Source: Enhygromyxa sp.
GTDB taxonomy: Bacteria; Myxococcota_A; Polyangia; Nannocystales; Nannocystaceae
Direction of reading: 5' to 3'
DNA: 28,195 nt
Assembly (NCBI GenBank): GCA_046484755.1
Contig: JAWOII010000250.1
Location: forward strand, 1 to 28,195
Each line of letters opens with the position of its first letter. Position 1 is the first letter of the stretch. Positions 1 to 22,245 of this stretch are shown in pieces. The position numbers were made by a program, and so were the translations under genes. Below the pieces are notes generated by a model. The model searched no databases. It had not been told where the DNA came from and saw nothing but the letters and a program-made list of their open reading frames with translations.

Positions 1-1
1 G

Positions 2-136
2 ACCGCGATGCGTGCGATGGACGGCAGCACCCTCGACGGCCGCACGATCCGCGTCAACGAGGCCAACGACCGCGAGCGCAGCGGCGGCGGCTTCGGTGGT
101 GGCGGGCGTGACCGCGGCGGGCGCGACCGCTACTGA
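2..136 (+). CDS. RRM-type (glycine-rich) RNA-binding protein, 3' end only; CDS enters from upstream of the window
   Basis: Frame 2 reads ...RAMDGSTLDGRTIRVNEANDRERSGGGFGGGGRDRGGRDRY, stop TGA 134-136. This is the typical C-terminal RNP/RRM beta-strand followed by an RGG/Gly-rich tail. It is not in the ORF track because it is under the length cutoff and in a different frame from ORF 12..371. Confidence 0.55.
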   Translation, partial: TAMRAMDGSTLDGRTIRVNEANDRERSGGGFGGGGRDRGGRDRY

Positions 137-238
137 GCTCGCGCTCTGCTCTCACGCGCCCGCGGGTCGTCGGCAACGACGGCTGCGCGGGCGCTTCAAT
201 TTCCGAGATCCTCGCCTGGTCTTTCGCCGAGGGCGACG

Positions 239-535
239 CTACCTGGGTTGGTCAACAAAGCCGATCAACGCGTGGAGCTCGACGATGTCGGCGTCGGTGC
301 ACTTGCGCGTGCGGATCACCGTAATCGGGTTGCCGCTCAGGGTCGCGCGCAGGATGAGCCGCGCGCTTTGAATCTCCATGATCCCAAACCCGGCGGGAGC
401 CCGGACCTCGCCGTAGCGGGCCGCGAGCCTGCGCCAGAGCTCGGCGACCTGCTGCTTCTCGAAGAAGTACTTGTAGGTCTCGGGGTGGATACAGGCGTAG
501 TGGCGCGCTCGCGTCGGGGCTGGCCAATCGCTCAT
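239..535 (-). CDS. small hypothetical protein (98 aa), third gene of the RsbR-like operon
   Basis: Internal ATG (533-535, complementary strand) within ORF 239..886. MSDWPAPTRARHYACIHPETYKYFFEKQQVAELWRRLAARYGEVRAPAGFGIMEIQSARLILRATLSGNPITVIRTRKCTDADIVELHALIGFVDQPR has a diverse, protein-like composition. Its ATG overlaps the TGA of the upstream gene (ATGA at 532-535). No family recognised; possibly a small alpha+beta fold. Confidence 0.45.
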   Translation of the reverse strand: MSDWPAPTRARHYACIHPETYKYFFEKQQVAELWRRLAARYGEVRAPAGFGIMEIQSARLILRATLSGNPITVIRTRKCTDADIVELHALIGFVDQPR

Positions 536-1767
536 GCCGTGCGCTCGACTTCGAAGCTGCAGGCCGGCGCGCCGACGCAGATGCAGGCCGACTCGTGCGT
601 GGCGCAGGTCCCGAGCCGGTCCTCGACGGCCCCGCTGCCGTAGACGAGCTCGAGCAGGCCCGCGGCGACGCCGGTTAGCATATAGCAAGTCGGGCTCGCG
701 GCCGGGCCCCGGCGCTCGCCATAGCCGATCGCCTCGTAGCCGTTGAGCGACTCGAAGCTGATCCGCTCGGGGTTCGGGTGGTGGGTGATGTGCCAGTTGC
801 CCCAGCCGAGGCCGTTGCTGATCGCGACGAGCGCGAGCATCTTGTCGCGCGGCTCCCGGATCATCGGCGCGACGAGGGCGTCCCACTCAGCCGAGTTCAT
901 GATCCCGCGAAAGGTGTTCATCGCACAGATCTCGCCGTCGGCGATCAGCATGCGCTTGGCTGCCCTTTCGCGCCGCTTGGCGGCCATCGCCTCGACGAAG
1001 CGGATGCACACGAGGTTGTAATAATCCGCGGGGGTGTTGGCCAGGTATACGCTAAACGCGGGGATCAGCCCCTCGGCGTTGCCGTGGATCGGCATCGCGA
1101 CGAGCGCGTCGATGAGCGCCTGCTCGTCGACATTGTTCGAGCGCAGGTACTCACCGCGCCGCTTGGGCGAGAACTCGAACTCGTGCTTTACGTCGCTCGC
1201 GGGCGACTCGGCGCGGGCGTCGTCGAGCTCGAACACGCACGCCGGGTCGCCCTTGGCCATGCACGCGCGCTCGCGTGCGTGCACGAGCCGGTCGTCGACG
1301 ACTCGGACGGCGGCTTGAATGTAGCCCTCGGCGAAGCTGCAGACCGGCCGCTCGGGTGTGCCGAAGCCCGCGAGCCAGCCCTCGACGTAGTGTGAGGACG
1401 TGGCCCTGACCCGGCCCTCGGCCAGCGTCGAGAAGTCGAGCACTCCGAAGCCCAGGTGGGCGTAGAGCCCGATCGCGACGGCGAGCTTGGTCGCCGCGTC
1501 GTCGCCCTCGCGCAGGGCCGCGGCGATTTGCTCGGCGAATACGGCCTCGGCTGAGCTGCGGATGATCGCCTTTCCGTCGATCATGTCCGTGCCTTCGATG
1601 GTCCGCTGAACTCGCGCGTTGTAATGATGGCAATGAATGATGACGTCTTTTTCGGCGATGACCCGGCGATGGTTGGCGGGGTCGTAGCGAAGCTCGAAGC
1701 GGGACGCGAGCGCTGCGGTGTCCATGTGGTCCTCCTCGGCGACACGGCGGTCGCGTGATTCGATCAT
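532..1767 (-). CDS. tandem V4R-domain (XylR-N-like, putative small-molecule-binding) protein, 411 aa
   Basis: Two halves each end in a Cys-containing V4R-like signature. The first is C-SFAEGYIQ...ERACMAKGDPACVFEL; the second is CYMLTGVAAGLLELVYGSG...TCATHESACICVGAPACSFEV. Start ATG at 1765-1767 overlaps the TGA (1764-1766) of the upstream RsbR-like gene. Stop at 532-534 overlaps the ATG of the downstream small gene. Confidence 0.5.
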   Translation of the reverse strand: MIESRDRRVAEEDHMDTAALASRFELRYDPANHRRVIAEKDVIIHCHHYNARVQRTIEGTDMIDGKAIIRSSAEAVFAEQIAAALREGDDAATKLAVAIGLYAHLGFGVLDFSTLAEGRVRATSSHYVEGWLAGFGTPERPVCSFAEGYIQAAVRVVDDRLVHARERACMAKGDPACVFELDDARAESPASDVKHEFEFSPKRRGEYLRSNNVDEQALIDALVAMPIHGNAEGLIPAFSVYLANTPADYYNLVCIRFVEAMAAKRRERAAKRMLIADGEICAMNTFRGIMNSAEWDALVAPMIREPRDKMLALVAISNGLGWGNWHITHHPNPERISFESLNGYEAIGYGERRGPAASPTCYMLTGVAAGLLELVYGSGAVEDRLGTCATHESACICVGAPACSFEVERTA

Positions 1768-2942
1768 TTGCGCGAAATCGAACGAATCGCAGTCTGCAAA
1801 TTCGCGTAGACTTCGAGATCGCCATAGTCGGCCCAATCCTGCGCGATGCTCTGCGCGATCGCAGGGCTCAAGCCGGTCAGCAGGGCGCGGACGCCAATCA
1901 GCCGCAGCGCCCGGGTCGCGCGGATCAGCGCGTCGACGCTACGGGTGTCGAGCTCGGGCACGCCGGTGAGGTCGAGTATGATCGTGCGCGTGCGCTCGCT
2001 AACCGCGGCCGCGAGCAGGTCCTCGACGATCTCGCTCAGGCGCTCGCCGTCGAGCTCGCCGATGAGCGGGACTACGGTGACCTCGGGGCTGATCGGGATG
2101 CGTGGGGCCGTCAGCGCCCGGATCGCCTCGCGCTGCGCGGCGATGATCTCGGCCTGGTGGCGCAACTGCTCCTGCTCGCGAGCGCTTCGTTCCTGCTCGG
2201 CTCGTCGGCGGTCGCTGCGGTCACGCAGCGAGAGGCTGTAGCCGGCCCGACCCGCGCCCGGGAGGTACAGCGGCCGAGTCTCGAGCTCGAGCCAGCGACC
2301 GTCGAGCTCGAGCTCGCTACGGTAGCCGGCCGGAGACCACAGTGCGTCGGTCCGCAGCAGCGCGTGGCTCTCCGACTCGGCGATCAGCTCGACGAAGCTG
2401 CGGCCGGCGAGGGCCTCCTCGACGATCAGCACGCCGTGGGCGGAGCGAAAGCCGATCAGCTCGACGAAGCGGGCGTTGTGCTCGACGATGCGCAGGTCGC
2501 CGTCGAGGAACACGATGCCCTCGGAGGCCTCGCGGATCACCGCCGCGGTCCGCCGCTGGCGCACGAGCAGGTCATGAACGAGGTTGTTGGCGCCGTCGAG
2601 CGGCTCGACGCTCGCGACCCAGCCGTCGGCGTCGCGGACCAGGACCAGCCGGGTCAAGCGCTCGCGTGCTCCGAGCTCGAGCAGCGCGAGGATGTCGACG
2701 TGCGCGCGCGAGTGGTTTGTCGCGCAGCGATCGAGGGCGAGCGTGGCCGGGCGATCGCGGGCGGCCACGAAGTCGGTCAGCTCGACGCCCTCGAGCTCGG
2801 CGAAGCTGCACTCGAACTCGCGCAGGAACCAAGCCGAGGCCGCGCGCACGGCCAGGCCCTCGTCTAGGCGCAGGAGCCCCAAGGGCGCCTCGATGTCCGG
2901 CTCATGCATGCGCGACGACTCGGGCATCCAAGCGAGCACCAT
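1764..2942 (-). CDS. RsbR-like stressosome-type sensor: N-terminal sensor region, PAS-like domain, coiled coil, C-terminal STAS domain
   Basis: The C-terminus TVVPLIGELDGERLSEIVEDLL...TIILDLTGVPELDTRSVDALIRATRALRLIGVRALLTGLSPAIAQSI closely resembles the RsbR/RsbS STAS domain. The track ORF begins with TTG at 2969. In-frame ATGs lie at 2942, 2927 and 2909 and none has a clear SD, so the start is uncertain. Confidence 0.65.
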   Translation of the reverse strand: MVLAWMPESSRMHEPDIEAPLGLLRLDEGLAVRAASAWFLREFECSFAELEGVELTDFVAARDRPATLALDRCATNHSRAHVDILALLELGARERLTRLVLVRDADGWVASVEPLDGANNLVHDLLVRQRRTAAVIREASEGIVFLDGDLRIVEHNARFVELIGFRSAHGVLIVEEALAGRSFVELIAESESHALLRTDALWSPAGYRSELELDGRWLELETRPLYLPGAGRAGYSLSLRDRSDRRRAEQERSAREQEQLRHQAEIIAAQREAIRALTAPRIPISPEVTVVPLIGELDGERLSEIVEDLLAAAVSERTRTIILDLTGVPELDTRSVDALIRATRALRLIGVRALLTGLSPAIAQSIAQDWADYGDLEVYANLQTAIRSISRK

Positions 2943-2969
2943 GAAGCACCCGGCCGGCGCAAAAATCAA

Positions 2970-3211
2970 GCTGCGCGTTCGTCGAAAGTGGTGATGATCA
3001 CATTTCTACTATTCGTTCTCGCAGACGTTTTCGCTATATCGAAACTGCCAGTCGCGCGGGACGGATGTCGGGATCAACGGGCGCCGAGCCCGGCCAGCGA
3101 ACGCTCTAGTCAGCCGTAGAAAGAGGGGATGCCTCATACCCTGGCACCATGCCAGGGCGATGAAAGACGGCGAGGACGACTACTCTGACGAAAGCAGATA
3201 TTTCCACGAGG
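2970..3211. promoter_or_regulatory. divergent intergenic promoter region with an AT-rich core (about 2990-3060) and an 8-bp-stem palindrome ccctggca-cca-tgccaggg (3138-3156)
   Basis: 242-bp non-coding gap between the minus-strand RsbR-like operon and the plus-strand gene 3212. The local GC drop (tgatgatcacatttctactattcgttctcgcagacgttttcgctatatcg) is the only strongly AT-rich stretch in the first 4 kb. It contains a tgatca core palindrome and a tatatc -10-like element. Confidence 0.3.
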
Positions 3212-4381
3212 ATGACAACTTTGACAAACACTGAGCTCGAGCTCGTTGGAGAACAGGGCACGCGCCACCGGCTCGCGCTCAACCTCCCGGCGCCCGGTGT
3301 GCTCGATGTGATCGAAGGGCCGGCTGTGCTGCGCGACCGGTTCGCCGCCGAGGATTGGTTCGCGGCGTCGTGCGAGCTTCGTCGTCGGGCTGAGCGACTC
3401 GGCTATCGACTAGCGATCTCCGGCGCGTGCGCGGGGGTCTGGCCGACGCTGAGGCAACGTGCCGCCGGTGGGCTCACGCTGACTCGTCTGACTCGCCGCG
3501 GCGACACGCACGAGCTCGGCGAAGCAGTTGAGTTGTTCGATCCCGCGCCGGTCGACGAGGTCGTCGAGGTCGTCGCACAGCGTCGCGTGTGGCGAGACTG
3601 GCTGTTGCGCCCACGACTGCGCCCAGGCGTCCGCGAATTCGAGCTGGTGCGGGAAAGCATCCGTGAGGGCGAGCACATCATCGTTGCGACGCCACCTGAC
3701 GATCCTCGTTTCGAGTTTGTCGGCGCGACCCTCGGGTGGTGGAGGGTGGCCCGCCACCAACGCCTCGAGCCGCGATTTCGGGCCAACCCCCGCCTCGTTC
3801 GCGTCGTGCGAGACGACGGCCGCGCACGCACGGCCGAGCTCCTCGTCGAGCTCGGTTCGGGCGAGGTTCGCGTGCGGCTGTTCGGAGCGGGGTTGGATGA
3901 GGGCTTCGGTCGCGGTAGCGACGGCTTCGTCGCGCTCGCCGATCTCCGCGAGCGAATTGCTGGGCACGGTCGACGCCTGTGCGTCGAAGGAGCGCGCGAA
4001 GATGCGTGGCGCTCCTCCGGCGACGGCCTCACGGTCAGTCGACAAGCGCTCGGGCGGGCGGCCAAGTACGGCCGTCGCGTGGATCTGCTCGATCGCATCG
4101 AGGCCGAGCAGGTCGCAAGCGTCGCCGCGCAGACCCTTTACCGGCGAATGTTGCTCGGTGCCGAGGCCACCCCGAGCGTCGAGGTCATCGCCTGGGCACT
4201 GCGCGAACCCGACAGCACGCGGCCCTTGCTCCTCGGCCGTGACGATGCGAGCGCCCTGGGCTGGTGGGTGAGCGACTCGTGGGGCCGGGTCGCGGAGTTT
4301 CGTCCGAACCCGTGGCTCTGGGCGCGCGAGCGCGGCGTAGAGCCGCGCGACCCCTATCCATATCCGCTCGAGGGCCGCTGA
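3212..4381 (+). CDS. hypothetical Arg-rich protein (389 aa)
   Basis: Long ORF with strong GC3 bias after the first codons. No recognisable domain. Transcribed divergently from the RsbR-like operon. gagg sits immediately before the ATG with near-zero spacing, so the exact start is uncertain. Confidence 0.5.
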   Translation: MTTLTNTELELVGEQGTRHRLALNLPAPGVLDVIEGPAVLRDRFAAEDWFAASCELRRRAERLGYRLAISGACAGVWPTLRQRAAGGLTLTRLTRRGDTHELGEAVELFDPAPVDEVVEVVAQRRVWRDWLLRPRLRPGVREFELVRESIREGEHIIVATPPDDPRFEFVGATLGWWRVARHQRLEPRFRANPRLVRVVRDDGRARTAELLVELGSGEVRVRLFGAGLDEGFGRGSDGFVALADLRERIAGHGRRLCVEGAREDAWRSSGDGLTVSRQALGRAAKYGRRVDLLDRIEAEQVASVAAQTLYRRMLLGAEATPSVEVIAWALREPDSTRPLLLGRDDASALGWWVSDSWGRVAEFRPNPWLWARERGVEPRDPYPYPLEGR

Positions 4382-4522: not shown

Positions 4523-4837
4523 ATGCCCAAGCGCTCTCCGCCTGTCTTCCCGCGTGTCATGCGCCAGCTCGACGAGCTCGGCGCCCGGCTGCGCGCGGCG
4601 AGACTGCGACGGCGGATGACCCAAGCGACGCTCGCTGCTCGAGTCGACGTCTCGTTGCCCACCATCCGCAAGCTCGAGAAAGGCGACCCGACCACGAGCC
4701 TGGCGACGCTGGTGCGGGCGCTGCAGGTGCTGGGCCTGGAAAAGGACCTTGACCTGCTCGCCGCCAACGACAAGCTCGGCCGCGCGCTGCAGGACATTCA
4801 CCAGGTCGGTCCGCCGCGCGGTAAGAGGTCGTCATGA
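4523..4837 (+). CDS. hipB: XRE-family HTH transcriptional regulator, HipB-like antitoxin
   Basis: LRAARLRRRMTQATLAARVDVSLPTIRKLEKG is a Cro/C1-type HTH. Its TGA (4835-4837) overlaps the ATG of the hipA-like gene (4834-4836). Confidence 0.7.
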   Translation: MPKRSPPVFPRVMRQLDELGARLRAARLRRRMTQATLAARVDVSLPTIRKLEKGDPTTSLATLVRALQVLGLEKDLDLLAANDKLGRALQDIHQVGPPRGKRSS

Positions 4838-6087
4838 GCGAGCGAGTCGATGTCGTGCTCGACGACGCGTCGCTCGGACCGACGACGAAGATCGGCACGC
4901 TCCACCGAGAGCGCGGCCGCTCGGCCGAGGTCATCAGCTTCGCTTATGAAGACGACTATCTCGCGCTACCGGGGGCCGTGGCGATCGATCCCGAGCTGCA
5001 GTTGCATCCCGGTCGTATGTACCCAACCCAGCAAGGTGGGCTGTTCGGGATCTTCCGTGACACCGCGCCGGACCGCTGGGGACGGGTGCTGATGGAGCGG
5101 CGAGAGGCCCTGGACGCGAAGCAGCAAAAGCGACGGCGGCGGCGGCTCTCGGAGTGGGATTTTCTGGTCGGCGTCAGCGATGTCGCGCGCCTTGGGGCCT
5201 TGCGACTGTGTGAGACCGAGCCGCCGCATCGATACCTCGACGACCGCGACCACACGGTCCCGCCCTTCGCTCGTCTGCGCGAACTCGAGGCTATCGCGCG
5301 CGAACTCAGCCGCGAGGGTGTCGAAGAGCGCCCGGAGTATGCCCAGTGGTTGGCGCAGCTCATCCAGCCGGGAACGAGCTTGGGCGGCGCACGACCCAAG
5401 GCGACCTTTTGTGGGGAGGACGGGCAGTTGTGGCTCGCCAAGTTCCCTGCCCACGACGATCGACGCGACGTGGGAGCTTGGGAGCACTTCGCCGGCCAAC
5501 TGGCGCTCACAGCCGGAATCCACATGCCGGAGTCCCGGCTGCTCGATCTTGGCAGCCGATACCGAACCCACGCCCTCAAGCGCTTCGATCGTGAGCCGGG
5601 CTCGCGGCGCCTCTACGCCTCGGCGATGACGCTCTTGGAGTTGAGCGACGGTGCAGAAGGTAGCTACCTCGATATCGCCGAGGCGATCCAGCTGCATGGC
5701 GATCCTGCTCTCATCGCTGCGGATCTCGAGCAGCTATACGGCCGCATCGTGTTCTCCATCCTGATTAGCAACCGCGACGATCACTTCCGCAACCACGGCT
5801 TCTTGCGGACCGCCGGCGGCTGGCGACTCTCGCCGGCCTTCGACATCAACCCCAACCCCGACAAGCTCGAGCACGCGCTGGCGATCGATGAAGCCGACCC
5901 GAGCCCATCGATCGCCAACCTGCACGCGACCCATCGCTATTATCGCCTCACCGACACCCAGGCCTCGAATATCGAGGTCCAGGTACGGGCGGCCGTTCGA
6001 GGGTGGCGGCAGATCGCCAGCAAGGTCGGTGTCTCCGCGGTCGAGCAGCGGCTGCTCGCGGACATCGTCGATCCCGACGCAGACTGA
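4834..6087 (+). CDS. hipA: HipA-family serine/threonine kinase toxin
   Basis: HipA N-terminal coupling region, P-loop-like GTSLGGARPKATF, and catalytic motif ISNRDDHFRNHGFL (HipA D-x-H-x-x-N type). RBS aagagg 5 nt upstream; translationally coupled to hipB. Confidence 0.8.
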   Translation: MSERVDVVLDDASLGPTTKIGTLHRERGRSAEVISFAYEDDYLALPGAVAIDPELQLHPGRMYPTQQGGLFGIFRDTAPDRWGRVLMERREALDAKQQKRRRRRLSEWDFLVGVSDVARLGALRLCETEPPHRYLDDRDHTVPPFARLRELEAIARELSREGVEERPEYAQWLAQLIQPGTSLGGARPKATFCGEDGQLWLAKFPAHDDRRDVGAWEHFAGQLALTAGIHMPESRLLDLGSRYRTHALKRFDREPGSRRLYASAMTLLELSDGAEGSYLDIAEAIQLHGDPALIAADLEQLYGRIVFSILISNRDDHFRNHGFLRTAGGWRLSPAFDINPNPDKLEHALAIDEADPSPSIANLHATHRYYRLTDTQASNIEVQVRAAVRGWRQIASKVGVSAVEQRLLADIVDPDAD

Positions 6088-6216: not shown

Positions 6217-8706
6217 TCAGTCGACCTTCACCGGCCGCCCGTTGGCCCCCTCGCCTCCCACTGCGATCTCCGGCCCGAGCACCTGCGCGAGCTTGGTGCC
6301 GCGCAGCAACCTCGCGAGCACCTCCGAGACGCTCTCGCCCCCGAGGATCGCCAGCGGGGCCATGCTCTCGGCCATCTTCTCGGCCAGGGCTTTATCACCG
6401 AACGCTTGCAACGCGGCGATCAGATCGGGCGAGACGGCGCCGGCCTTGTCGACGACGGCCTTGACCTCGGCCTCGAGCTCGCGCAGGCGCTGGGCGAGCT
6501 CGCGATCGCCGAGCTCGAGGTCGGTCTCGGCGGTCCGGCGGCGGCGAGCGAGCTTGGCGTCGTGGACGGCGTCGGTGGTGGCTTGCTCGGCTTGCTCGGC
6601 GTCGAGTCGACGCTTGCGGCTGTCGACCTCGGCGTCGATCTTGGCGACGTCGTAGTCGTGGACCGCGTCGATCTCGGCCCGCTGCAAGGCCAGCTGCTTT
6701 TGCCTGGTCGCGGCCTCGATCGCGGCGATCTCTTGCTTGATGGTCTCGCGCTCGCGGGTCTGATCGAGCCGGCGGCGCTCAGCCTCGAGGGTCAGGTTTT
6801 GCTGGACCACGGCGTGCTGGGTGTCGATCAGCAGCCGGGCGATCTCGGCGTCGCCGATCTCGACGTCGAGGACCTCGACGTCATAGACCCGCATGCCGTT
6901 CTCCTCGAAGTTTCGGCCGGGGCGCTTGCCGTCCTCGTTTTGGGCGCCGAGGACCACGTCGCGGACGACCGAGACCACCTGCGGGTGGAAGCTCTGGACC
7001 GTGCGCTGCTTGATCGCGCCGCGCAGCAGCGAGCGGAGGTGCTCGGTCAGAAATTTTACGTAGTTCTCGACGTTGAACCAGCGCTGCGGATCGCCCTCGA
7101 AGTTGACCCGGTAAGACAGCCGGATCCGGACCGAGACCAGGTCCGCGGTCTCGGCCTCGACGAGATCCGAGACCTTGTTGTAGAGCACCCGCAGGTAGGC
7201 GGTGCGCTCGAGCTGGGCGTCGGACTTGGGCGTGCCGGTCGAGAGCTCGGCCGGCTGCAGGACCTCGTCGTACTCGAGCATGTGGGTGGCCGGGCCGACC
7301 ACGACCTTGCGCTCGCCGGTCTTGCTGACCACCAGCACCGCGTAGCCGGTCCAGACCGCGATGCACACGGCCCCGTCGTAGCGGGTGTCGAGCACGATCG
7401 TCCGCGGCTGGGTGAAGCTCTGCCCGCGGTTGAAGTCGTCGCCCGCGTAAGTCGAGCTGGCCTCCTCCTCCTGCTCCTGCTTCTTCTTCTTCCTGGCCCG
7501 CTCCTGCTTGTGCGCGCGAAGCTCGAGCTCCTCGTTGGCGATGTAGTCGCTCTTGCCCTCCTGCAGGGCGGCCAGCCGGCGGTTGTGCTCGAGCGCGTCT
7601 TGGTTGCCGGGGAACCACAGCTTGACGTGGCGGGGATCGAGGATCCGCCGGACGATCACCTCGCGCCGGGGATCGGGCAGGAAGATCGAGGGGCCGCGCT
7701 CGAGCCGAATCTGCCCGGTGTGGCGGTCGAGCACGTAGCGGGCCTCGCCGGCCGGAATCGCGACCCCGTAGCTGATGGTCTGCTGCCCGTACTTGATGAT
7801 CGCGTGCTCGGGCCGGGGGAAGTAGATCATTTGATCCTTCCCGGTGATGAACAGCTCGTCGCCGACGTTGTAGCTGTTGCCCTTGCCGTCCTCGTAGGGG
7901 GCGATGACCTTGATGTAGATGCCGCTGTTTTCGTTGAGCTCGATCGCCCGGAATTTGTTGGCGCCCTCGCGCTCGACGAAGGTCTCGGTCGGCTGCGGGA
8001 ACACGACCGCGGGGCCCTGCAAATAGGTCTTGTTGCCGTTTTCGTCGAGCAGGATGCAGTACTCGAGGCGCTCGAGGGTCACGGCCTCGCGCACGAACTC
8101 GCCGTCGTCGTTGGGGACGACCTCGATGCCGGTCGAGGGGATGTAGAAGCTGACGTCGGTGCCCTTGATGACCAGCTGCTTGCCCATGGTCAGGTCGGGC
8201 GGCTCGACCTCGAGCGCGCCCTCTTCGGCCGAGCCCTGCCGCTTGATCACCGCCCGCTCCCAGTTGGCCTTGGCGGCTTCTTCGTCGTAGACGCGGACGA
8301 TCAGGTACTGATTGGAGCGCAGGTTGTGGCCCTGGATGACCCGGACCATCTGCCCGGGCCACAGCGCGAAGGCGGCCGGCCCGGGGAGGTTGACCTTGCG
8401 GCCGATCTCGAGCTCGATGAGGTTGTTGATCGCCCCGGTCTTGGGGTGCGAGCTGTCCTTGGCGGGGTTCTTGAGGACCAGGTACCAGCCGACCGGCGCG
8501 ACCGCGAAGCTGCGGGTTGCGGCCTCGAGCGAGCACTTCTCGAAGCGCTTGTTCTCGGCGTTGAAGACGACCGGCTGATCGGTGTTGGCGAGGCTGGTCT
8601 TGTACGGACCGATGTAGGCGTTGATGTTGCCCTTGGTCTCGTCGGCGATGAAGGCGTACTCGTTGGGGGCGAGGATCAGGTCTCGTTCACGGGCGCGGTC
8701 GGACAT
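6217..8706 (-). CDS. major vault protein (MVP)-like protein: vault repeats, SPFH-like shoulder, long coiled-coil cap-helix; 829 aa
   Basis: N-terminus [39 protein letters not shown] matches the MVP repeat-1 pattern [63 protein letters not shown] parallels MVP [32 protein letters not shown]. Shoulder segment [35 protein letters not shown] parallels MVP [35 protein letters not shown]. A long Ala/Glu/Arg-rich coiled coil (about 200 aa) at the C-terminus resembles the MVP cap-helix. Contains a K/E-rich low-complexity insert encoded by the ctcctcctc/cttcttctt tract at 7462-7497. RBS ggag 9 nt upstream of the ATG (8704-8706). Confidence 0.7.
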   Translation of the reverse strand: [829 protein letters not shown]

Positions 8707-8772
8707 GCGGGAGGCTCCTGCGAGAAGACAGGATACGGGTTTGCCGAGCCGGCGGATCGGCGAAGCGGTGAT

Positions 8773-10074
8773 TCAATGAAACAGCAGGTGAATGCCCGCA
8801 TCCGAGCTGTAGACGACCTTGGAGGAGTGCGGGTGGCTGGCTTCGAGGGCGACGAAGTGGAGATCGGGGGCCGCGACCCCGAGCTTGCGGGTCCACAGCT
8901 CCTGGAAGTTGATGAAGCGCTCGTAGCGAGAGCGACCCTCGAGCTGGGACCTGCAGTTCTCGGGGAAGGTGTTCTCGTGATCGGTGGCGGCCTGGATGTG
9001 CCAGACCTCGCGCGAGGCGTACATGAGGATCAGCGCCTGGCGAGCGGCGCGGTTCCAGATCGCGCTGCCGGGGTTGCGCAGGGCCTTGCGGGCGAGGGCC
9101 CGATCATGGGGGCGCAGGTAGTGGTCGATCGCGTAGTTGGCCGCGCGGACCGGACGATCGCTCTTGGCCTTGCTCAGATTGCCGAGGCCGTAGCCCCAGT
9201 CATCCCAGCCCTTGCAGCCTTGCGGGTTGATCCACCGCCAGCTTTGGATGTCGCCGCGCCCGGGTCCGGGCGGGACCGAGCCGCGCCCGGGCGGGGTCTT
9301 GCGCTGAGGAAGCGGAAAGGCATAGCTGCCGCCGTTGGCCGGCATGTACCGGACCCGGATGCCGGCAGCGGCGAGCTGCTCGTGCACGCCGACGCCCATC
9401 CACACGTAGCGGTGCACGAACTGGCCGCCGGCGGAGTGGCCAGTGATGACGATGTCCTCGAGGTTGGGGAACTTGACGACCGCGGCCCGGAGGAACTCGT
9501 CGAGGACGTCGAATGACGAGACCGACTCGGCCTTGACGATGCCTGACATCGCCTCGCGGTACTCGGCGACGGTGCCGAGCGGATAGGAGGCGCGAGTCCA
9601 GCTCCACACCCGCGGATCGTCGTCGGTGTAGGGCTGCCACTCGTCGGTCCGCTGGAAGGTCGGGGCGATGATCGCGTAGCGCTCGGGGTCGACGCTGGGG
9701 TCGAGCTTCTGGGCCCGGCGCAGGGCGTAGAGGACGTTGCGCAGCTGATAGAGGCCAGGCGGCTCGTCGAGCCGGGCGAGGAGGTCGGCGTCGGGGCCGT
9801 AGACGCCGTGGACGACGAAGATCATCCGCGTGACCTTGGGATCGGGGCGGCCGTCGAGCTCGCTGCCGGGGTCGCAGTGGTAAGGCATGCGCCCCTTGAA
9901 GTGCTCGGCGTGGGCCCAGCGACGAAACTTGAGGTAGGTCTGCACGCACTCGTCGGGCTGACAGCGCTGCAGCTCCTCGACGGGCTTGTAGCGAGGCGGT
10001 CCGGCGTTGCGCCCGGCGCAGCCGAGCAGCGTCCAGAGCAGGCACCAAAGCAGCCACTGCGAGCGGCCGAGCAT
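8773..10074 (-). CDS. lipoprotein, alpha/beta-hydrolase fold (GHSAGG nucleophile elbow)
   Basis: Start chosen at [19 protein letters not shown], a signal peptide with lipobox LLGC. The longer track ORF adds an Arg-rich extension that overlaps fdh[15 protein letters not shown] is a G-x-S-x-G motif. Lies 66 bp upstream of the MVP-like gene on the same strand, so it may be co-transcribed. Confidence 0.55.
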
Positions 10075-10098
10075 CGCGGCGAGTGTACACTCGCCTCG

Positions 10099-10955
<857 letters not shown>

Positions 10956-10959
<4 letters not shown>

Positions 10960-11462
10960 CGCGAGGGGCCTGGATCGCGGCTGCGCTGCTGCTCGGATCG
11001 GCGAGCGGGTGCTGGCCCGGTCGCTGCGGCGGCGCCCTGCGGGGCACGCCGATGGTCGCGTTCACGGGCGAGCACGCGCCCTGTACCGAGGGGCCGAGCT
11101 GCGCCGAGCTCATCTCGCCCGAGCGGGGCTTTCGCCAAAAGGGTGACTACGCGCGGGTCGACGATCCCTCGGTCTTGCTGGCCGAGTCGGGCGTCGACTC
11201 GCGGACTTGGTTTCTGGTCGACGAGCGCGACGCGATCGTGCCGAGCCGCGTCGAGGCGATCCAGCACAGCTCAGCCCACAGCTGCGCGTCGGCGGTAGGC
11301 TTCGAGCTCCGGCCCGACGCGCCGCTCGAGCCGGGGGTCTATCGCCTGGTGTTGCTGGTCGAGCGGGTCCGCTGGCCGCTGCTGCGCGGGAGCGTGGCGC
11401 TGTCGAGCTGGGCGGGCGAGCCGGCGCTCGTGCAGTACTACCGGGTCGAGGCGCCAGGGTAG
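10956..11462 (+). CDS. small hypothetical lipoprotein (168 aa), translationally coupled to fdhD
   Basis: ATG 10956-10958 overlaps the fdhD TGA 10957-10959. N-terminus [19 protein letters not shown] is a signal peptide with lipobox. It is the 3' third of track ORF 10083..11462. Confidence 0.45.
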
Positions 11463-11484
11463 GCTGAACTTCAGGCGTTTCTTG

Positions 11485-11503
11485 GCGAGAGCTTTGCTCT
11501 CGT
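11485..11503 (+). terminator. short hairpin gcgagagc-ttt-gctctcgt between the fdhD operon and the low-GC islet
   Basis: 7-8 bp stem with a triloop, 23 nt after the lipoprotein stop and 16 nt before the GTPase ATG. It could be a terminator or a translational element. No U-tract. Confidence 0.15.
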
Positions 11504-11518
11504 GCGAACCTGTGGCCC

Positions 11519-12346
11519 ATGTCCGATCTCGCTGTCAAGGGGTTGGTTCTCGGCACGGAGGTGGTGAAGTACGTCCGCGACCACCCCCAGACGGTCAACG
11601 CGACGTGGGACATGATCTCGGCGCTGCTCAAGAAGAGAAAGCGGGTGGTCGTCACCGGGATGAAGTGGGCCGGCAAGACGGTCCTCTGCGATTTCCTCAC
11701 GGGGAAGGGATACGAGGAGGGCTACGTGCCACCCGACTCGTCAGTCCGACAGGAGGACGCCCGGATGCCGCGTCCGAAAGGACGCGAGGGCTTCGTGCTC
11801 TCGACGATTCCTGGCGACGACTCGCTCCCCCGGCGAAGCTCCCTGGACGAGCTGCTTGGTGGCGGCGAGACCATCACTGGAGTGATGCACGTGGTGTCGA
11901 ATGGCTTCGTCGCGCCGCGCTCCGGCGTCGCACGCGAGCTCATGGAGCGAGACCACGCCACCGTGGACGAACTCCGAACGGCGATGCTCGATGCCGAGGT
12001 TGAAAACCTGGGAGAGACGCTGCGCGCACTCGAAGCTTACTGGCTGCGGACGAGGCGCCCGCTGTGGCTGCTGATCGTGCTCACCAAGACCGACCTCTGG
12101 TCGCTGACTCAGCGCGAGGTCTTCGAGCATTACACGCGCAAATCCAGGTTTGCGCGTGACCTTTCGGCGCTCCGAGCGCGCATCGGCTCGCTGAATCTCG
12201 ATCTACGGTGGACAGTGGCTGCTACAGTGCAGGAAGACTTCGTCTGGACCAAACGACAGGCGAGGGTGGAGTCCGCGCTCTCCAAGGAACAACGAGATGC
12301 CTACGTACGCCTACTCAGGGCTCAGCTCTACGAGCTCGTCGGTTAA
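11519..12346 (+). CDS. P-loop NTPase, GTPase-like (Walker A GMKWAGKT; [NT]KxD-like LTKTD)
   Basis: VVVTGMKWAGKTVLCDF is a Walker A/G1 motif. WLLIVLTKTDLW is a hydrophobic strand followed by a TKxD G4-like motif. The gene has lower GC (about 62%) than its flanks (about 72%). Confidence 0.55.
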   Translation: MSDLAVKGLVLGTEVVKYVRDHPQTVNATWDMISALLKKRKRVVVTGMKWAGKTVLCDFLTGKGYEEGYVPPDSSVRQEDARMPRPKGREGFVLSTIPGDDSLPRRSSLDELLGGGETITGVMHVVSNGFVAPRSGVARELMERDHATVDELRTAMLDAEVENLGETLRALEAYWLRTRRPLWLLIVLTKTDLWSLTQREVFEHYTRKSRFARDLSALRARIGSLNLDLRWTVAATVQEDFVWTKRQARVESALSKEQRDAYVRLLRAQLYELVG

Positions 12347-12812
12347 GCCGCAAGACGAGCGCCTCGACGCTCGTGAAGGCCCCGACGACCTTCTCGACGA
12401 TGGTCGCTCAGCGGCTTTGCAGCTTGCCGATTTCGAGAAAGTCGTCGATCGGCTACTTGGAGAACACGAAAAGTTCGAAGCACAGCGCGTTCGAGCATAC
12501 ACGCAGTTGGCATATGCCGTTGCCGTCATCTTCTTCTTGACTATCGCGTTTGTATTCTCGACTCGCACATCCACCGCAAACACCGCGCACCTCACCATTG
12601 CCAGTTTCGTGCTGGCCCTTGGGTCTATCATTCTAATGGTCTGGACTGTGTTCCGAAGCTTCCGGAACCAACAGCGCACCCACGAAGAACTGGCCGAACT
12701 CGTGCGAGAAATCGCACCAGCCTTCATGCCCAAATTATCTCCCATCCGCCGCGCCGAAATCAAGATCCGACTCTCCAACATCGGAATCTACGACCCCCTG
12801 AAATACCGCTGA
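12297..12812 (+). CDS. small membrane protein: cytoplasmic N-terminal region plus 2 predicted TM helices
   Basis: Hydrophobic segments AYAVAVIFFLTIAFVF and LTIASFVLALGSIILMVWTVF. GC is only about 53-55%. The ATG at 12297 overlaps the end of the GTPase gene by 50 nt in another frame, so the true start may be an in-frame non-ATG start downstream. Confidence 0.45.
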   Translation: MPTYAYSGLSSTSSSVKPQDERLDAREGPDDLLDDGRSAALQLADFEKVVDRLLGEHEKFEAQRVRAYTQLAYAVAVIFFLTIAFVFSTRTSTANTAHLTIASFVLALGSIILMVWTVFRSFRNQQRTHEELAELVREIAPAFMPKLSPIRRAEIKIRLSNIGIYDPLKYR

Positions 12813-12814
12813 CG

Positions 12815-13576
12815 TCAATCCACGACCACGAAGCTCGTGAACCGCTCGGTCACCCGCAGCTGCCCCTCGGGAGCATCCTTCACGCCGCCTTCGTGGCCGA
12901 AGTTCACGACCTGCCGGCGCTCGATCGGCAGCCCGCGCTCGTCGAGCCACAAGGTCGCGCGCCCGACCGGGCGCTTGCTCACGGTGATCTGAAACTCGAG
13001 CGGCCGGGCCTCGCCGGTGCCGAACACCTCGGGCGGACCGAGCTGCGGCTCGATGACCTGGATCCACTCGGCCACGCCGCCGTCGGCGTGATCGGGCGGG
13101 CGGCCGGCGACCAGCATCGCGAGGTTGTGGAGCAAGCCCTGGCGGGTGAGGCCGACGACCACGGCCTCGATCAGCGCGGGCGGGCGCGGGCCGGTCCAGC
13201 GCGACTCGCCGGCGCCGAGGACCTCGAGGGTCTGGGCGTCGCCGCGCAGCTCGAGCTGCTGGGGCTCACCGTTGAACTCACCGCTGACGGTCCACGCCAG
13301 CGCGGCGTCGCGCTCCCAGACCAGCTTGCCCTCGAGCTGCGACACCACCGCGCCCTCGGACTCGATCACGAACGCGATCTCGACCCGCGCGGCGGCTTGC
13401 AGGCGCCGCTCGAGATCGGTCAGGGTCCGCACCGCCCAGGCGTCGGCTTGCTTGGGCTCGGCTTCGGCTTCGACGGGCGTGGCCGGCTCGCCCGAGAGGG
13501 TCTCGCCCGAGGTCGCGCACGCGAGCGCGAGCGTGGTCGCAGCGAGCAGGGCCAGCGTCACTGATCGGCGGAGCAT
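12815..13576 (-). CDS. hypothetical lipoprotein (253 aa)
   Basis: Internal ATG (13574-13576) of the 1003-aa track ORF. N-terminus MLRRSVTLALLAATTLALAC is a signal peptide with lipobox LALAC. The remainder of that ORF is antisense to gene 13667..15727. Its stop at 12815-12817 lies 2 nt from the convergent stop at 12812. Confidence 0.55.
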   Translation of the reverse strand: MLRRSVTLALLAATTLALACATSGETLSGEPATPVEAEAEPKQADAWAVRTLTDLERRLQAAARVEIAFVIESEGAVVSQLEGKLVWERDAALAWTVSGEFNGEPQQLELRGDAQTLEVLGAGESRWTGPRPPALIEAVVVGLTRQGLLHNLAMLVAGRPPDHADGGVAEWIQVIEPQLGPPEVFGTGEARPLEFQITVSKRPVGRATLWLDERGLPIERRQVVNFGHEGGVKDAPEGQLRVTERFTSFVVVD

Positions 13577-13666
13577 CGCCCGAATGATCCCCGGGCGGTC
13601 ACCGTTGTACAACCCGCCCGTCCGGCAATCGCTTCGTGTATCCTCGGCCGAACCCTGGAGCTCACG

Positions 13667-15727
13667 ATGAAGCGCTTGACCCTGTTGATGACCCCTGCTT
13701 TGGCCTTGTCTCTCGCCGCGACGACCGGCTGCAACGACGACGCGCCCGCTGACGAGAACACCAGCGAGACCGGTGACGGCGACGGTGACGGTGACGGCGA
13801 CGGCGACGGTGACGGCGACGGCGACGGTGACGGTGACGGTGACGGTGACGGCGACGGCGAGGAAGACCCGCCGGCCGAGGTCTCGTGGCCGACCCTCGAT
13901 TGCGACCCGCTGGTGCCGGACTACTGCCTGTTCCCCTACCCCAGCAACGTGTTCACGGCCGACGATCCCGGCTCGCCCACCGGCCGCCGCCTGGCCCTGA
14001 GCAGCGAGCGGCTGCCGAGCAAGAACAACAACGAGATGGACGCGACGGTCTTCAACGAGGCCGACGGCTTCTCGGCAGGACTGGCGGCGATGACCTACCT
14101 GCCGGGCGCGACCACCTCCGGGCTGCCGACCTGGCAGGACCTCGACGCCTCGCTCGCCGCCGACTCGCCGACCGTGATGATCAACGCCGAGACCGGCGAG
14201 CGCGTGCCTCACTTCTCGGAGATCGACGTCTCGCTGGCCGGGGCCAACAAGAACGCGCTGATGGTCCGCCCGGTCGTTCGGCTCGACGACAACACCCGCT
14301 ACATCGTCGCGATCCGCAACGTCGTCGACCAAAACGGCGAGGTGATCCCGGCCAGCCCCGGGTTCGCGGCGCTGCGCGACCTGACCCCGAGCGACGACCA
14401 GAGCATCGAGGAGCGGCGCCCGCTCTACACCGACATCTTCGCGCGCCTCGCCGACGCCGGGGTCGAGCGCGGCTCGCTGCAGATCGCCTGGGACTTCACG
14501 ACCGCGAGCCTCGACAACAACACCGGGGATCTGCTCCACATGCGCGACGACGCGCTGTCCATGTACACGCCCGAGGCGGGACCGACCTTCACGATCACCA
14601 CGGTCGACGAGGACTGGAACACCGACCACATCGCCTACCGGATCGAGGGCATGATCGAGGTCCCGCTCTACCTCGATGATCCCGGCCCCGGCGGGCACAT
14701 CGTCTATGGTGACGACGGGCTGCCCGAGTACCAGGGCACCGCCGAGTTCCCGTTTTACATGCTGATCCCCAACAGCGCCCTGGATACTCCCGCGCAGCTG
14801 TTGCAGTACGGCCACGGCCTGCTCGGCAGCGCGTCGGAGATGTACACCGGCCACATGCGCTCGTTCATCGACGAGTACAACTACATCCTGTTTGCGGTCG
14901 ACTGGATCGGGATGTCGCAGTACGACGCCCTCAACATCGCGTCGATGCTCACCACCGGCGAGATGCACCGCTTCGAGGACGTCAGCGATCGCCTCCAGCA
15001 GGGCCTGGTCAATTTCGTGGTCGCGACCCGGATGATGAAGACCAGCATGGCCGACCATCCGGACTACGGCTCGTTCATCGATCCCAGCGCCGCCCACTAC
15101 CTCGGCATCAGCCAAGGCGGGATCTTCGGCGGGACCTTCATGGCGATCTCGCAGGACGTCGAGCGCGGCTGCCTTGGCGTGTACGGCCAGCCCTACAACA
15201 TCCTGCTCAACCGCAGCGTCGACTTCGATCAGTACTTCGCGCTGCTCCAGCAGGGCTTTAGCGACTCGCGCGACCTGCAGATGATCCTCGCGCTGATCCA
15301 GGGCCTGTGGGACCACGCCGAGCCCAACGGCTACACCCACAAGATCAGCCAGGACATGTTCCCTGACACGCCCGAGCACGCGGTGCTGATGCGCGCGGCG
15401 CTTGGCGATCACCAGGTCACCACCCTCGGCGCTCACATCGGCGCCCGGGCGGTCGGGGCCAAGCACCTCGACACCGGCGTCCGCGAGGTCTGGGGGCTCG
15501 AGCAAGTCAGCGATCAAAACGAAGGCAGCACCTACGTCGAGTGGGACTTCGGCCTGCCCGAGGATCCGCTCGAGAACGTCCCGCAGGAGGCCTGCGCAGA
15601 TCCCCACGGCAAGCTCCGCCACCTCGAGGAGGCGCGGATGCAGCTCGACACCTTCTTCCAGACCGGGGTCGTGCAAAACTACTGCACCAACGGGACCTGC
15701 TCGTTCCCCGACATGAGCGGGTGCTGA
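13667..15727 (+). CDS. secreted lipoprotein, alpha/beta hydrolase (GISQGG nucleophile motif) with an N-terminal (Gly-Asp)n linker
   Basis: MKRLTLLMTPALALSLAATTGC is a signal peptide with lipobox. G-x-S-x-G appears in HYLGISQGGIFGG. RBS ggag 7 nt upstream of the ATG. The (GD)n tract is encoded by a hexanucleotide repeat. Confidence 0.65.
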   Translation: MKRLTLLMTPALALSLAATTGCNDDAPADENTSETGDGDGDGDGDGDGDGDGDGDGDGDGDGDGEEDPPAEVSWPTLDCDPLVPDYCLFPYPSNVFTADDPGSPTGRRLALSSERLPSKNNNEMDATVFNEADGFSAGLAAMTYLPGATTSGLPTWQDLDASLAADSPTVMINAETGERVPHFSEIDVSLAGANKNALMVRPVVRLDDNTRYIVAIRNVVDQNGEVIPASPGFAALRDLTPSDDQSIEERRPLYTDIFARLADAGVERGSLQIAWDFTTASLDNNTGDLLHMRDDALSMYTPEAGPTFTITTVDEDWNTDHIAYRIEGMIEVPLYLDDPGPGGHIVYGDDGLPEYQGTAEFPFYMLIPNSALDTPAQLLQYGHGLLGSASEMYTGHMRSFIDEYNYILFAVDWIGMSQYDALNIASMLTTGEMHRFEDVSDRLQQGLVNFVVATRMMKTSMADHPDYGSFIDPSAAHYLGISQGGIFGGTFMAISQDVERGCLGVYGQPYNILLNRSVDFDQYFALLQQGFSDSRDLQMILALIQGLWDHAEPNGYTHKISQDMFPDTPEHAVLMRAALGDHQVTTLGAHIGARAVGAKHLDTGVREVWGLEQVSDQNEGSTYVEWDFGLPEDPLENVPQEACADPHGKLRHLEEARMQLDTFFQTGVVQNYCTNGTCSFPDMSGC
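13772..13859 (+). repeat. in-frame hexanucleotide microsatellite (ggYgac)n, about 14.5 units, encoding (Gly-Asp)n
   Basis: ggtgacggcgacggtgacggtgacggcgac... read directly from the sequence. It generates the spurious VTVTVT ORF (13773..14000) in another frame and VAVAVT on the minus strand. Confidence 0.85.
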
Positions 15728-15902
15728 GCTGCTGAGCTCTCGCTCGAGAGGCTGCGGCCGCGCTGCTTGGCGCGGCCGCAGTCGCGAGCGGAGCTCGCCA
15801 ATCGCAAGGACGGGGATCGTCCCCACCCGTCGAGCTTGGATTGCCGCGTTGCCTCACCGATCGAGGACGAGTTCGCTCGCCCTGGGCCGGATCCGGCGGT
15901 CT

Positions 15903-18035
<2,133 letters not shown>

Positions 18036-18045
18036 GCGTCGCCGG

Positions 18046-18067
18046 GCGCCGAGCCCTTGCTCGGCGC
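18046..18067 (+). terminator. perfect 9-bp GC hairpin (gcgccgagc-cctt-gctcggcgc) 11 nt after the metalloprotease stop, followed by tandem gctcggc heptamers
   Basis: Stem 18046-18054 and 18059-18067 with loop cctt. No U-tract, which is common in high-GC genomes. The direct repeat gctcggc x3-4 continues to about 18084. Confidence 0.35.
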
Positions 18068-18147
18068 TCGGCGCTCGGCGCTCGCGCGTCGCGGCCTGGA
18101 ACGGAGAATGCACGTGTTCATGGTGACGAAGCCCGAAAGGACCAATC

Positions 18148-18669
18148 ATGAGCAGCGAACAAAGCGCCGAAGTCCAGTCCGCCGAAAAACTCCGTAAGCT
18201 CGTGCGCGAGTTCGACGACGCGATGCTCGTCAGCCTCGACGGCGGCGGCCAGCTGCACGGCCGTCCCATGCGGATCGTCGGTCACCAGCAAGACGGCGCC
18301 GACGATCTATGGTTTTTCACCGGAATCAACGCCGCCAAGCTCGCCGAGATGCGCCAAAACCCGCAGGTCGCGGTGACCATGGCAGACGGCAAGCGCTTCG
18401 TGGCGATCAGCGGCGAGGCCCGCATAGTCGTCGATCCGGCCAAGATCCAGAGCCTGTGGAACGAGAGCTGGAAGCTGTGGTTCCCCGACGGGCCCACGGG
18501 CGGCGGGATCGCGCTGATCCAGGTGCTGCCGCAGCACGCGGAGTACTGGGATCAGTCCTTCCCGGCGGGGATCCGCTTCGCGCTCGAGGCCGCCAAGGCC
18601 TGGGTCGCCAACGAGGCGATCGAGGAGCCCGACCGGCCCGAGCAGCACGCGAAAATTCAACTCTCCTGA
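18148..18669 (+). CDS. pyridoxamine 5'-phosphate oxidase-like FMN-binding protein (general stress protein 26 family)
   Basis: LVREFDDAMLVSLDGGGQLHGRPMRIV...QNPQVAVTMADGKRFVAISGEARIV...LWFPDGPTGGGIALIQV is the PNPOx-like split-barrel pattern. RBS gaaagg upstream. Confidence 0.6.
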   Translation: MSSEQSAEVQSAEKLRKLVREFDDAMLVSLDGGGQLHGRPMRIVGHQQDGADDLWFFTGINAAKLAEMRQNPQVAVTMADGKRFVAISGEARIVVDPAKIQSLWNESWKLWFPDGPTGGGIALIQVLPQHAEYWDQSFPAGIRFALEAAKAWVANEAIEEPDRPEQHAKIQLS

Positions 18670-21458: not shown

Positions 21459-21597
21459 TGTTGCAGTGCTCCGCAATTCGCTCGTGGTGCGGGTTCGGCC
21501 CGCGTGCGCCGGCAGTCTAACAGCCCGCGGCCGCCTGCGTGCGTGAGATTGGTTTGTACGGCGCTGCCGCGCTCGCGCCGAGCTGGTACCCTCGGCC

Positions 21598-22245
21598 ATG
21601 TCTTTGCGACGCTACGGCGTGCTCAAGGCCCGACCGACCGACCGCCGGCAGGGCGGCGGCCGGACGCCGCACTACCACATCCATGCGGTCGATCACGGCG
21701 AGGACTACCGGATCTCGATCAGCGTGCGCTCCAAGCCCGGTCCCTCGCGGGTGCTCTACCGGATCGACGATCGCTTCGAGCACCCCGTGCTCGCCCGGCT
21801 CCGCGAGCTGCCGATGGGCTTTTGCGGCCTACCCTCGGAGCCCGACGGCCTCGCCCTCGACTACGTCCGCGGCGAGCTGCTGCGCCGCGAGGACATGCAC
21901 GAGCTCGCCTGGGACGTGCCCGGCCCCGACCAGGACTTCAGCGAGCTCCTCCACCTGTGGATCGGCCGGGCGCTGCGGGACGAAGACGCGCTGATCTACG
22001 CCTTCGGCGAGCGCTTCGGCCCCGCGCACGGGCCCGATCACCACTTCGGCTTTCGGCCCGCCACCGGCATCTACAACGTGCACATGAACCAGGGCAGCGA
22101 CCCCGCCTACGCGGCCCTCGACGGGACCTGGCAAGACGGCGCGCTGCTCTTGTGGTTTCCGGCGATCGTCGAGGACGGCCTAGTCAAGCTGCGCGAGCGC
22201 TGGGTGGCCGTGTTCGTGGCCTTCGAGTCGCAGCGCTGGGGGTGA
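21598..22245 (+). CDS. DUF2278 (YukJ-like) family protein
   Basis: YGVLKARPTDRR...PHYHIHAVD...LDYVRGELL...WDVPGPD...ALRDEDALIYAFGERFGP...HFGFRP..GIYNVHMNQGS...WQDGALLLWFP...WVAVFVAFESQ matches my recollection of the conserved YukJ/DUF2278 core. Transcribed divergently from the FHA gene across a 139-bp gap. Confidence 0.55.
   Translation: MSLRRYGVLKARPTDRRQGGGRTPHYHIHAVDHGEDYRISISVRSKPGPSRVLYRIDDRFEHPVLARLRELPMGFCGLPSEPDGLALDYVRGELLRREDMHELAWDVPGPDQDFSELLHLWIGRALRDEDALIYAFGERFGPAHGPDHHFGFRPATGIYNVHMNQGSDPAYAALDGTWQDGALLLWFPAIVEDGLVKLRERWVAVFVAFESQRWG

Follow-up and report, generated by a model that had tools for sequence, protein, structure and literature searches.

Tandem-V4R and tandem-PAS proteins of Enhygromyxa: a conserved gene unit with interchangeable signalling outputs

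Introduction

The H-NOX and NosP proteins are described as soluble sensors that are encoded beside a kinase, a cyclase or a chemoreceptor and control it by contact. V4R sensor domains are in use as biosensors for aromatic pollutants. In the sigma-54 activator DmpR the zinc is held by a Cys/Glu/Cys/Cys site, and sensor domains of the DmpR type form interlocked homodimers (PMC7264223). Here we analyze three consecutive minus-strand genes from Enhygromyxa sp. (Myxococcota), encoding a PAS-STAS protein, a tandem-V4R protein and a small partner protein. The window is the whole stretch of 28,195 nucleotides (the metagenome-assembled contig JAWOII010000250.1 of assembly GCA_046484755.1), and the three open reading frames (ORFs) are labelled A (1764-2942), B (532-1767) and C (239-535). 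A first-pass annotation, made from the sequence alone, had located the ORFs at these coordinates, as we find them, and had read the group as a stressosome-like operon with B and C in the places of RsbS and RsbT.

Results

The conserved unit and its outputs

One genome per species was scanned with two motifs of the B protein, resulting in 70 loci, many of which are from metagenome bins; the phylum of a single bin (e.g. a Cyclobacteriaceae bin) is only as good as the binning. With the HCHHYN motif of B as search pattern, relatives were recovered in approximately seven phyla. Most of the 70 loci belong to Myxococcota, and the others to Cyanobacteria (Coleofasciculus, Pleurocapsa), Planctomycetota, Nitrospinota, Pseudomonadota (Thiomargarita, Sulfuricellaceae), Bdellovibrionota and one Bacteroidota bin. 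When the window proteins were compared with these loci by tblastn, C adjoined B in 46 of the 70, and a tandem-PAS protein homologous to residues ~20-250 of A adjoined B in 52, or approximately 59 if divergent ones are counted, the usual gene order being B, C, PAS protein. Seven further loci (six from Bdellovibrionota and L055) carry a kinase ORF in the position of the PAS partner, all four that were scanned being kinases. The six Bdellovibrionota ORFs are ~460 codons long with a divergent N-terminus, several are followed by a response regulator, and three out of three scanned were histidine kinases. The linkage was also recovered from the other side: a metagenome scan with a PAS2 motif, derived from a nine-sequence PAS subset, gave 11 loci, eight of them with usable upstream sequence, and B and/or C lay directly upstream in seven of these eight.

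A Pfam census of 50 tandem-PAS partner proteins showed which outputs are attached to this module. HATPase_c was found in 26 of them (among these kinases HisKA in 16, Hpt in 4 and a receiver in 13), SpoIIE/PP2C in 15, STAS in 8 and an adenylate/guanylate cyclase in one. A dedicated tandem-PAS module and B, in most cases with C, thus make up the conserved unit, to which at least four exchangeable outputs, STAS among them, are attached. Since the same B-C pair is found beside kinase, PP2C, STAS and cyclase outputs, B and C belong with the input of A and do not substitute for RsbS and RsbT. The chance that A, B and C are mere neighbours without a common function seems negligible to us, as the linkage is kept across approximately seven phyla, is recovered by the reverse search and is accompanied by gene fusions (see below).

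All three genes A, B and C are found together in seven other loci (L001-L006 and L026), so the co-conservation that the first-pass annotation had named as a check is there, along with the V4R similarity of the middle protein and the STAS domain of the first. These seven closest loci are also the only ones where the STAS of A was matched inside the PAS partner. No gene besides A, B and C is common to the eight STAS-type loci.

In three PP2C-type loci that were examined, small ORFs with weak, sub-threshold STAS matches lie downstream, together with a DUF6272 ORF in the cyanobacterial one, a layout that by its predicted domains resembles partner switching. The Coleofasciculus loci L025, L027, L028, L032 and L065 have no C, and B is followed directly by a tandem-PAS-PP2C gene; in L025, L027 and L028 the DUF6272 ORF and a 114-residue ORF with a weak STAS match come next, which again looks partner-switching-like. 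The first-pass annotation had also suggested a ligand-sensing module that feeds a STAS-type switch. This part is reasonable and survives in modified form, whereas its stressosome framing does not. Sister loci do feed canonical partner-switching parts (tandem PAS fused to SpoIIE/PP2C).

All-against-all clustering of the ORFs in the 70 loci revealed no other conserved neighbour hinting at a ligand, as no family beyond B, C and the PAS partner occurred in more than ~18 loci. The neighbours that were found are lineage-specific (aminotransferase, AMP-ligase, terpene synthase, DoxX), and no heme oxygenase, bilin reductase or chromophore-synthesis gene is conserved in the loci. Six loci from Nannocystis spp. 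(L034, L036, L037, L040, L044 and L050) are of a different kind. They contain a paralogous tandem-V4R gene with neither C nor a dedicated tandem-PAS partner, and this gene is surrounded by two or three PAS-STAS genes (with RsbR-like STAS), a DoxX protein, an AMP-dependent ligase and a terpene synthase. Judged by gene content, they would constitute a second, independent V4R-STAS neighbourhood in Nannocystaceae.

Gene A and the stressosome question

Gene A (1764-2942, minus strand, 392 residues; the true start is possibly a few codons downstream of 2942) encodes a tandem-PAS module, a coiled linker and an RsbR-type STAS domain. For PAS1 (2583-2885, residues ~20-120, boundary approximate), tblastn and alignment A5 show a homologue at the first PAS position of the partner protein in 52 loci, and Pfam calls a PAS domain there in the homologues though not directly in A. 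PAS2 (2190-2552, residues ~131-251) is matched by PAS_4 at 140-247 (2.3e-8) and PAS_8 at 131-178, and its best-conserved stretch is EGIVxLD...RIVEHNxRFxEL. Altogether Pfam PAS_4, PAS_8, PAS_9 or PAS matches were obtained for A and for 41 of the 50 partner proteins. A charged helical linker (2106-2189, residues ~252-279, RRRAEQERSAREQEQLRHQAEIIAAQREAIRAL) connects PAS2 with the STAS domain (1767-2105, residues 280-392; Pfam STAS 8.5e-14) and aligns with the linker before the STAS domain of RsbR. Among PDB entries the linker and STAS match Listeria RsbR best (6qcm, E 4.6e-22, residues 267-368, ~100 residues), followed by V. vulnificus RsbR (2e-14), YtvA (1.2e-13) and RsbS (~1e-5). An RsbR-like STAS domain behind a PAS-like sensor was exactly what the first-pass annotation had predicted for this gene.

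Three columns of the tandem PAS are invariant (E113, N156 and D241), and the PAS alignment contains no invariant His or Cys, which counts against a covalently bound or His-ligated cofactor in this module. A cofactor-binding PAS of the LOV or heme type was considered for A and rejected, the N-x-R-F stretch being the generic PAS N-x-A-F motif. Membership of the YtvA family was rejected as well: the NCBIfam model YtvA_fam (NF052652) matches A at 1e-22 with 80.9 bits against a cut-off of 250, over model positions 118-243 only (linker and STAS), and the PAS modules have no invariant Cys.

The resemblance to RsbR makes it natural to consider that A is an RsbR paralogue within a STAS scaffold and that B and C are stoichiometric subunits that replace RsbS and RsbT in a non-canonical stressosome or partner-switching operon. 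The closest matches of the STAS domain are indeed stressosome RsbR, V. vulnificus RsbR and YtvA, with RsbS further away, the order PAS-linker-STAS parallels that of YtvA, and the co-conservation of A, B and C in seven loci is what such a unit would show. We nevertheless find this quite improbable. Neither B nor C has a STAS or GHKL-kinase fold, and the B-C pair follows the PAS module to kinase, PP2C and cyclase outputs too. The threonines that RsbT would phosphorylate point in the same direction. Their positions (Listeria T175/T209, equal to B. subtilis T171/T205) were taken from phospho-site variants in the PDB alignment, and the eight STAS-type orthologues have G/R/R/T/R/R/R/R at the first and T/E/E/G/E/S/R/A at the second, the window protein having Gly and Thr; the phospho-acceptor threonines of RsbR are thus not conserved among these orthologues. 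Approximately 20 large ORFs of the window were scanned with Pfam, several of them giving no match at all, and none matched a kinase, PP2C, sigma factor, HATPase or further STAS domain, in agreement with the earlier statement that no kinase or phosphatase is encoded nearby; RsbS and RsbT matches were likewise absent among the ORFs scanned. Stressosome membership was therefore rejected on three counts: no RsbS or RsbT match among the window ORFs scanned, threonines that are not conserved and an output that can be swapped. The same holds for a complete partner-switching module (STAS, RsbW-type kinase and PP2C) within the window, where the STAS domain alone is present.

Gene B and its possible signal

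Gene B (532-1767, minus strand) encodes a tandem-V4R protein of the DmpR/PoxR sensor-domain kind, 411 residues long as annotated and ~397 residues from the ATG at 1725. Secondary structure and a structure model divide it into half 1 (1168-1725, residues 15-200) and half 2 (535-1167, residues 201-411), the latter with a weak NCBIfam match to the MobR V4R domain at residues 337-406. By hhalign, half 1 and half 2 are homologues of one another (probability 89.5%, E 1.9e-6), and the Cys/Glu/Cys/Cys columns of the B profile align with the C...ETHC...C motif of the MopR zinc-site region. The two V4R domains proposed earlier for B are therefore both there, and by its fold B belongs with the V4R proteins. 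Two zinc sites are predicted, site 1 at 1237-1341 (C143, E166, C169, C177) and site 2 at 559-687 (C361, E392, C395, C403); hhalign aligns them with each other, and all eight residues are invariant in the 21-sequence alignment A1. The HCHHYN motif of half 1 (1618-1635, residues 45-50) is invariant in the same alignment, and this invariant His/Cys cluster suggests a metal or a metal-bound ligand. Half 2 contains long invariant stretches of its own (GLIPAF.VYL..PAD.YN, T.FRGIM.S.EW, SN..GWG.W and G.YEA.G). Among the 120 matches listed, the homologues of B are 348-411 residues long and consist of V4R only, and B itself is a stand-alone protein that is not fused to an AAA+ sigma-54 activator.

With respect to the signal, B could respond to a small hydrophobic or aromatic molecule, to a metal or gas ligand, or to an oxidant. 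The last alternative would leave the architecture proposed below intact and concerns the signal only: oxidation of the Zn-thiolate sites or of the HCHH cluster would release metal and change the conformation of B. In its favour, C46 and the residues of the two Cys3Glu sites do not vary among the aligned homologues, NCBIfam gives B a weak match (1.1e-5) to the V4R of MsvR, a redox regulator whose V4R contains Cys, and H-NOX is a fold neighbour of B; heme-free V. cholerae H-NOX is reported to respond to Cys oxidation at a zinc site (PMC7108781). The same zinc site, however, has a structural role in the phenol sensors (PMC7264223), and conservation alone cannot separate a structural role from a sensory one. 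On these grounds we regard oxidant sensing as rather unlikely. No heme-binding signature is evident in B.

A second alternative places the real sensor in A. Here B, with C, would be a carrier or loader that supplies a hydrophobic cofactor (a tetrapyrrole, a bilin or similar) to the PAS domains of A, which would then sense oxygen, redox state or light. The founding V4R protein, BchJ, was proposed as a porphyrin carrier. Pairs of V4R proteins are present in bilin-biosynthesis clusters of delta-proteobacteria and cyanobacteria (PMC10151467), phyla where B is common, and the PAS photoreceptor PYP is fused to V4R in 20 proteins (PMC12826048). The same two observations make a tetrapyrrole or bilin a candidate for the ligand of B itself. 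Against this stand the tandem PAS itself, which offers E113, N156 and D241 as invariant residues and no His or Cys to hold a cofactor, and the lack of conserved genes for heme oxygenase, bilin reductase or chromophore synthesis in the loci. The strict one-to-one pairing in operons and the fusions of C to PAS proteins would also suit a permanent partner better than a loader, and we judge the loader function to be unlikely.

Gene C

Gene C (239-535, minus strand) encodes a 98-residue alpha/beta protein with an invariant Cys15 and the secondary-structure order beta-beta-alpha-beta-beta-beta-alpha. A profile search against 1.84 billion representative proteins gave 85 clusters, none of which leads to a named family. 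The earlier description of C as a protein of unknown fold still stands. In two different representative proteins, P0181 (620 residues) and P0185 (853 residues), and in locus L021, C forms the N-terminal part of a tandem-PAS kinase by in-frame fusion, and such fusions are classically taken to indicate contact, here between C and the PAS module. These fusion proteins (in L021 at 7230-9806) are histidine kinases of the order C-tandem-PAS-kinase, one of them with an Hpt domain.

Starts, junctions and borders of the operon

The first-pass annotation had reported ATGA stop/start overlaps at 1764-1767 and 532-535 and had regarded all three genes as translationally coupled. Both positions are exact, and the coupling is credible for one of the two junctions. 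The 4-nt overlap of B and C (532-535) is credible and conserved, as the start of C mostly lies -4 to +25 nt from the stop of B in the loci where a start can be placed (ORF starts in related loci being approximate). At the A/B junction the stop codon of A overlaps the annotated start of B (1764-1767), which is probably not the start that is used. This ATG is doubtful because no ribosome-binding site precedes it in the sequence, because GAGGAGG (1731-1737) is found 5 nt before the ATG at 1725, because the homologues in alignment A1 mostly start at the equivalent of residue 15, and because residues 1-14 have a predicted local distance difference test score (pLDDT) below 50 in the structure model. 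Translation of B probably starts at ATG 1725, 38 nt past the stop of A, and the three genes still form one operon. The 4-nt A/B overlap is also present in E. salina (L003), so tight linkage remains the rule in this lineage. As a consequence for the databases, the public annotation of gene B (411 residues) is probably 14 codons too long at its start.

On its downstream side the operon meets a convergent gene of the plus strand, which ends at 136, and on its upstream side a divergent gene of 389 codons starting at 3212. Of the convergent gene only the 3' end is present (2-136, ending in ...DGRTIRVNEANDRERSGGGFGGGGRDRGGRDRY*), the rest lying beyond the window edge; its product, with a glycine-rich tail, resembles the glycine-rich RNA-binding proteins of the RRM type. 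A scan of positions 1-3300 found neither promoters nor terminators, and such a scan is uninformative in a myxobacterial genome of 67-70% GC. A role in anti-phage defence was rejected, since PADLOC gave no match for A, B, C or the divergent neighbour.

Other genes of the window

At 6217-8706 (minus strand) the window encodes an 829-residue bacterial homologue of the eukaryotic major vault protein (Pfam MVP_shoulder 2.8e-27, with Vault_3 repeats). A helix-turn-helix protein of the XRE type (4523-4837, plus strand) overlaps by 4 nt with a HipA-like kinase (4834-6087, plus strand; HipA_C 2.3e-43), the two forming a HipBA-type toxin-antitoxin pair. Unrelated to A, B and C are a cytochrome P450 (18694-20103, plus strand, 2.5e-75), an FHA-domain protein (20130-21599, minus strand) and a sulfotransferase (23811-24983, plus strand). 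An IS630-like transposase (27263-28171, minus strand; DDE_3 1.7e-24, HTH_32) lies at the window edge. The region 8773-18269 contains several long ORFs on both strands with no Pfam match, such as 12815-15826 (1003 residues) and 16497-18269 (590 residues), both on the minus strand; the DNA is 65-72% GC, and some of these may be spurious antisense frames.

Discussion

We think it probable, though well short of settled, that A, B and C work as one cytoplasmic sensing unit in which B is the receptor and C an adaptor, both acting on the tandem PAS of A, to which a swappable output is attached. The receptor B would consist of two fused V4R domains of the DmpR/PoxR type, and could be an intramolecular version of the interlocked dimer formed by DmpR-type domains. 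Each half would be held by a structural Cys3Glu zinc site, as predicted from the residue pattern, and the HCHHYN cluster of half 1 is the best candidate for a signal-binding or metal site. C, co-translated with B, would act as a small adaptor, and the two would dock on the N-terminal tandem PAS of A, which is dedicated to them. From there a conformational change would be relayed by the tandem PAS through the helical linker to whatever output is attached. In Enhygromyxa this is the RsbR-type STAS, which presumably binds or releases a partner encoded elsewhere, for example a STAS scaffold or a protein of the anti-sigma or kinase type.

Some of the observations do not fit this scheme well. C is missing in 13 loci that have B and a PAS partner, mostly cyanobacterial, and is therefore not essential to the module, and eight loci have B with no PAS partner. 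Within the window, no partner for the STAS output is encoded. The known V4R ligands probably do not transfer to B either: the Trp of the phenol-anchoring His/Trp pair of DmpR (PMC7264223) and MopR corresponds to Ala122 of B in an ungapped register read by eye, the region upstream being aligned by no tool, and phenols are therefore unlikely ligands. The domain identities, the genomic linkage of A, B and C, the swappable outputs and the C-PAS fusions are established by the data, while the contacts of B with C and the PAS module, the direction of signalling, the nature of the signal and the target of the STAS domain are inferred.

A wider reading goes further, and we offer it tentatively, as a possibility that more probably fails than holds. 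B, C and the tandem PAS would be a previously unrecognised family of cytoplasmic receptors spread over approximately seven phyla, whose HCHHYN motif holds a non-heme metal or a new class of signal, which may be a gas, a metal, a tetrapyrrole or an oxidant. The family would be wired into two-component, partner-switching, cyclic AMP and STAS pathways, and an RsbR-type STAS would be at work outside the stressosome.

The input modules of bacterial signalling are far less catalogued than the outputs. The recurrence of tandem-V4R protein, C (a protein of 95 or so residues) and tandem PAS from Myxococcota and Bdellovibrionota to Cyanobacteria, Planctomycetota and Nitrospinota, with four output chemistries, is the signature of a general-purpose sensor, comparable with H-NOX, NosP and LOV. 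Once the signal of B is known, annotations would follow for hundreds of kinases, phosphatases and STAS proteins together, and B would add a new stand-alone receptor to the V4R scaffolds. For the stressosome field, A provides an RsbR-type STAS that seems to work without RsbS and RsbT and without the regulatory threonines.

Comparison with known systems

In a full-text search of the literature, V4R was nowhere connected with STAS, partner switching or PAS kinases of the same operon, and no description of tandem-V4R proteins or tandem-V4R/PAS operons was found. The V4R domain with its Cys/Glu/Cys/Cys pattern is shared with the sigma-54 activators DmpR, PoxR, MopR and XylR. B differs from these in having neither an AAA+ nor a DNA-binding domain, the Trp that anchors phenol in them has no counterpart in the aligned register, and HCHHYN and the many invariant positions of half 2 set the B family apart. 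The V4R pairs of bilin-biosynthesis clusters and of slr0144-slr0149 (PMC10151467) also bring two V4R units together and have a similar phyletic range (delta-proteobacteria and cyanobacteria). Unlike the two halves of B, each of these units is a protein of its own, and the genes clustered with them encode an Fe-S protein, a globin and a bilin reductase, which are not conserved near B in the loci.

On the side of gene A, the linker and STAS align to stressosome RsbR and the layout is that of YtvA, whereas no RsbS or RsbT adjoins A, the threonines are not kept and STAS is one of four outputs. PAS-PP2C partner switching of the RsbP/RsbU type is paralleled in the 15 sister loci where the tandem PAS is fused to SpoIIE/PP2C; in the window, by contrast, the STAS is fused directly to the sensor, and no PP2C or kinase match was obtained among the ORFs scanned.

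The closest functional parallel, by analogy, is H-NOX/NosP, as B likewise is encoded beside variable signalling partners (kinase, PP2C, STAS or cyclase). The unit described here differs in that the sensor is a tandem V4R protein, that an extra protein C and a dedicated tandem-PAS docking module take part, and that the outputs include PP2C and STAS. Collectively, the B family, the C family and the dedicated PAS partner across approximately seven phyla are new, while the V4R, PAS and STAS parts and the H-NOX-like logic of sensor and transducer are known.

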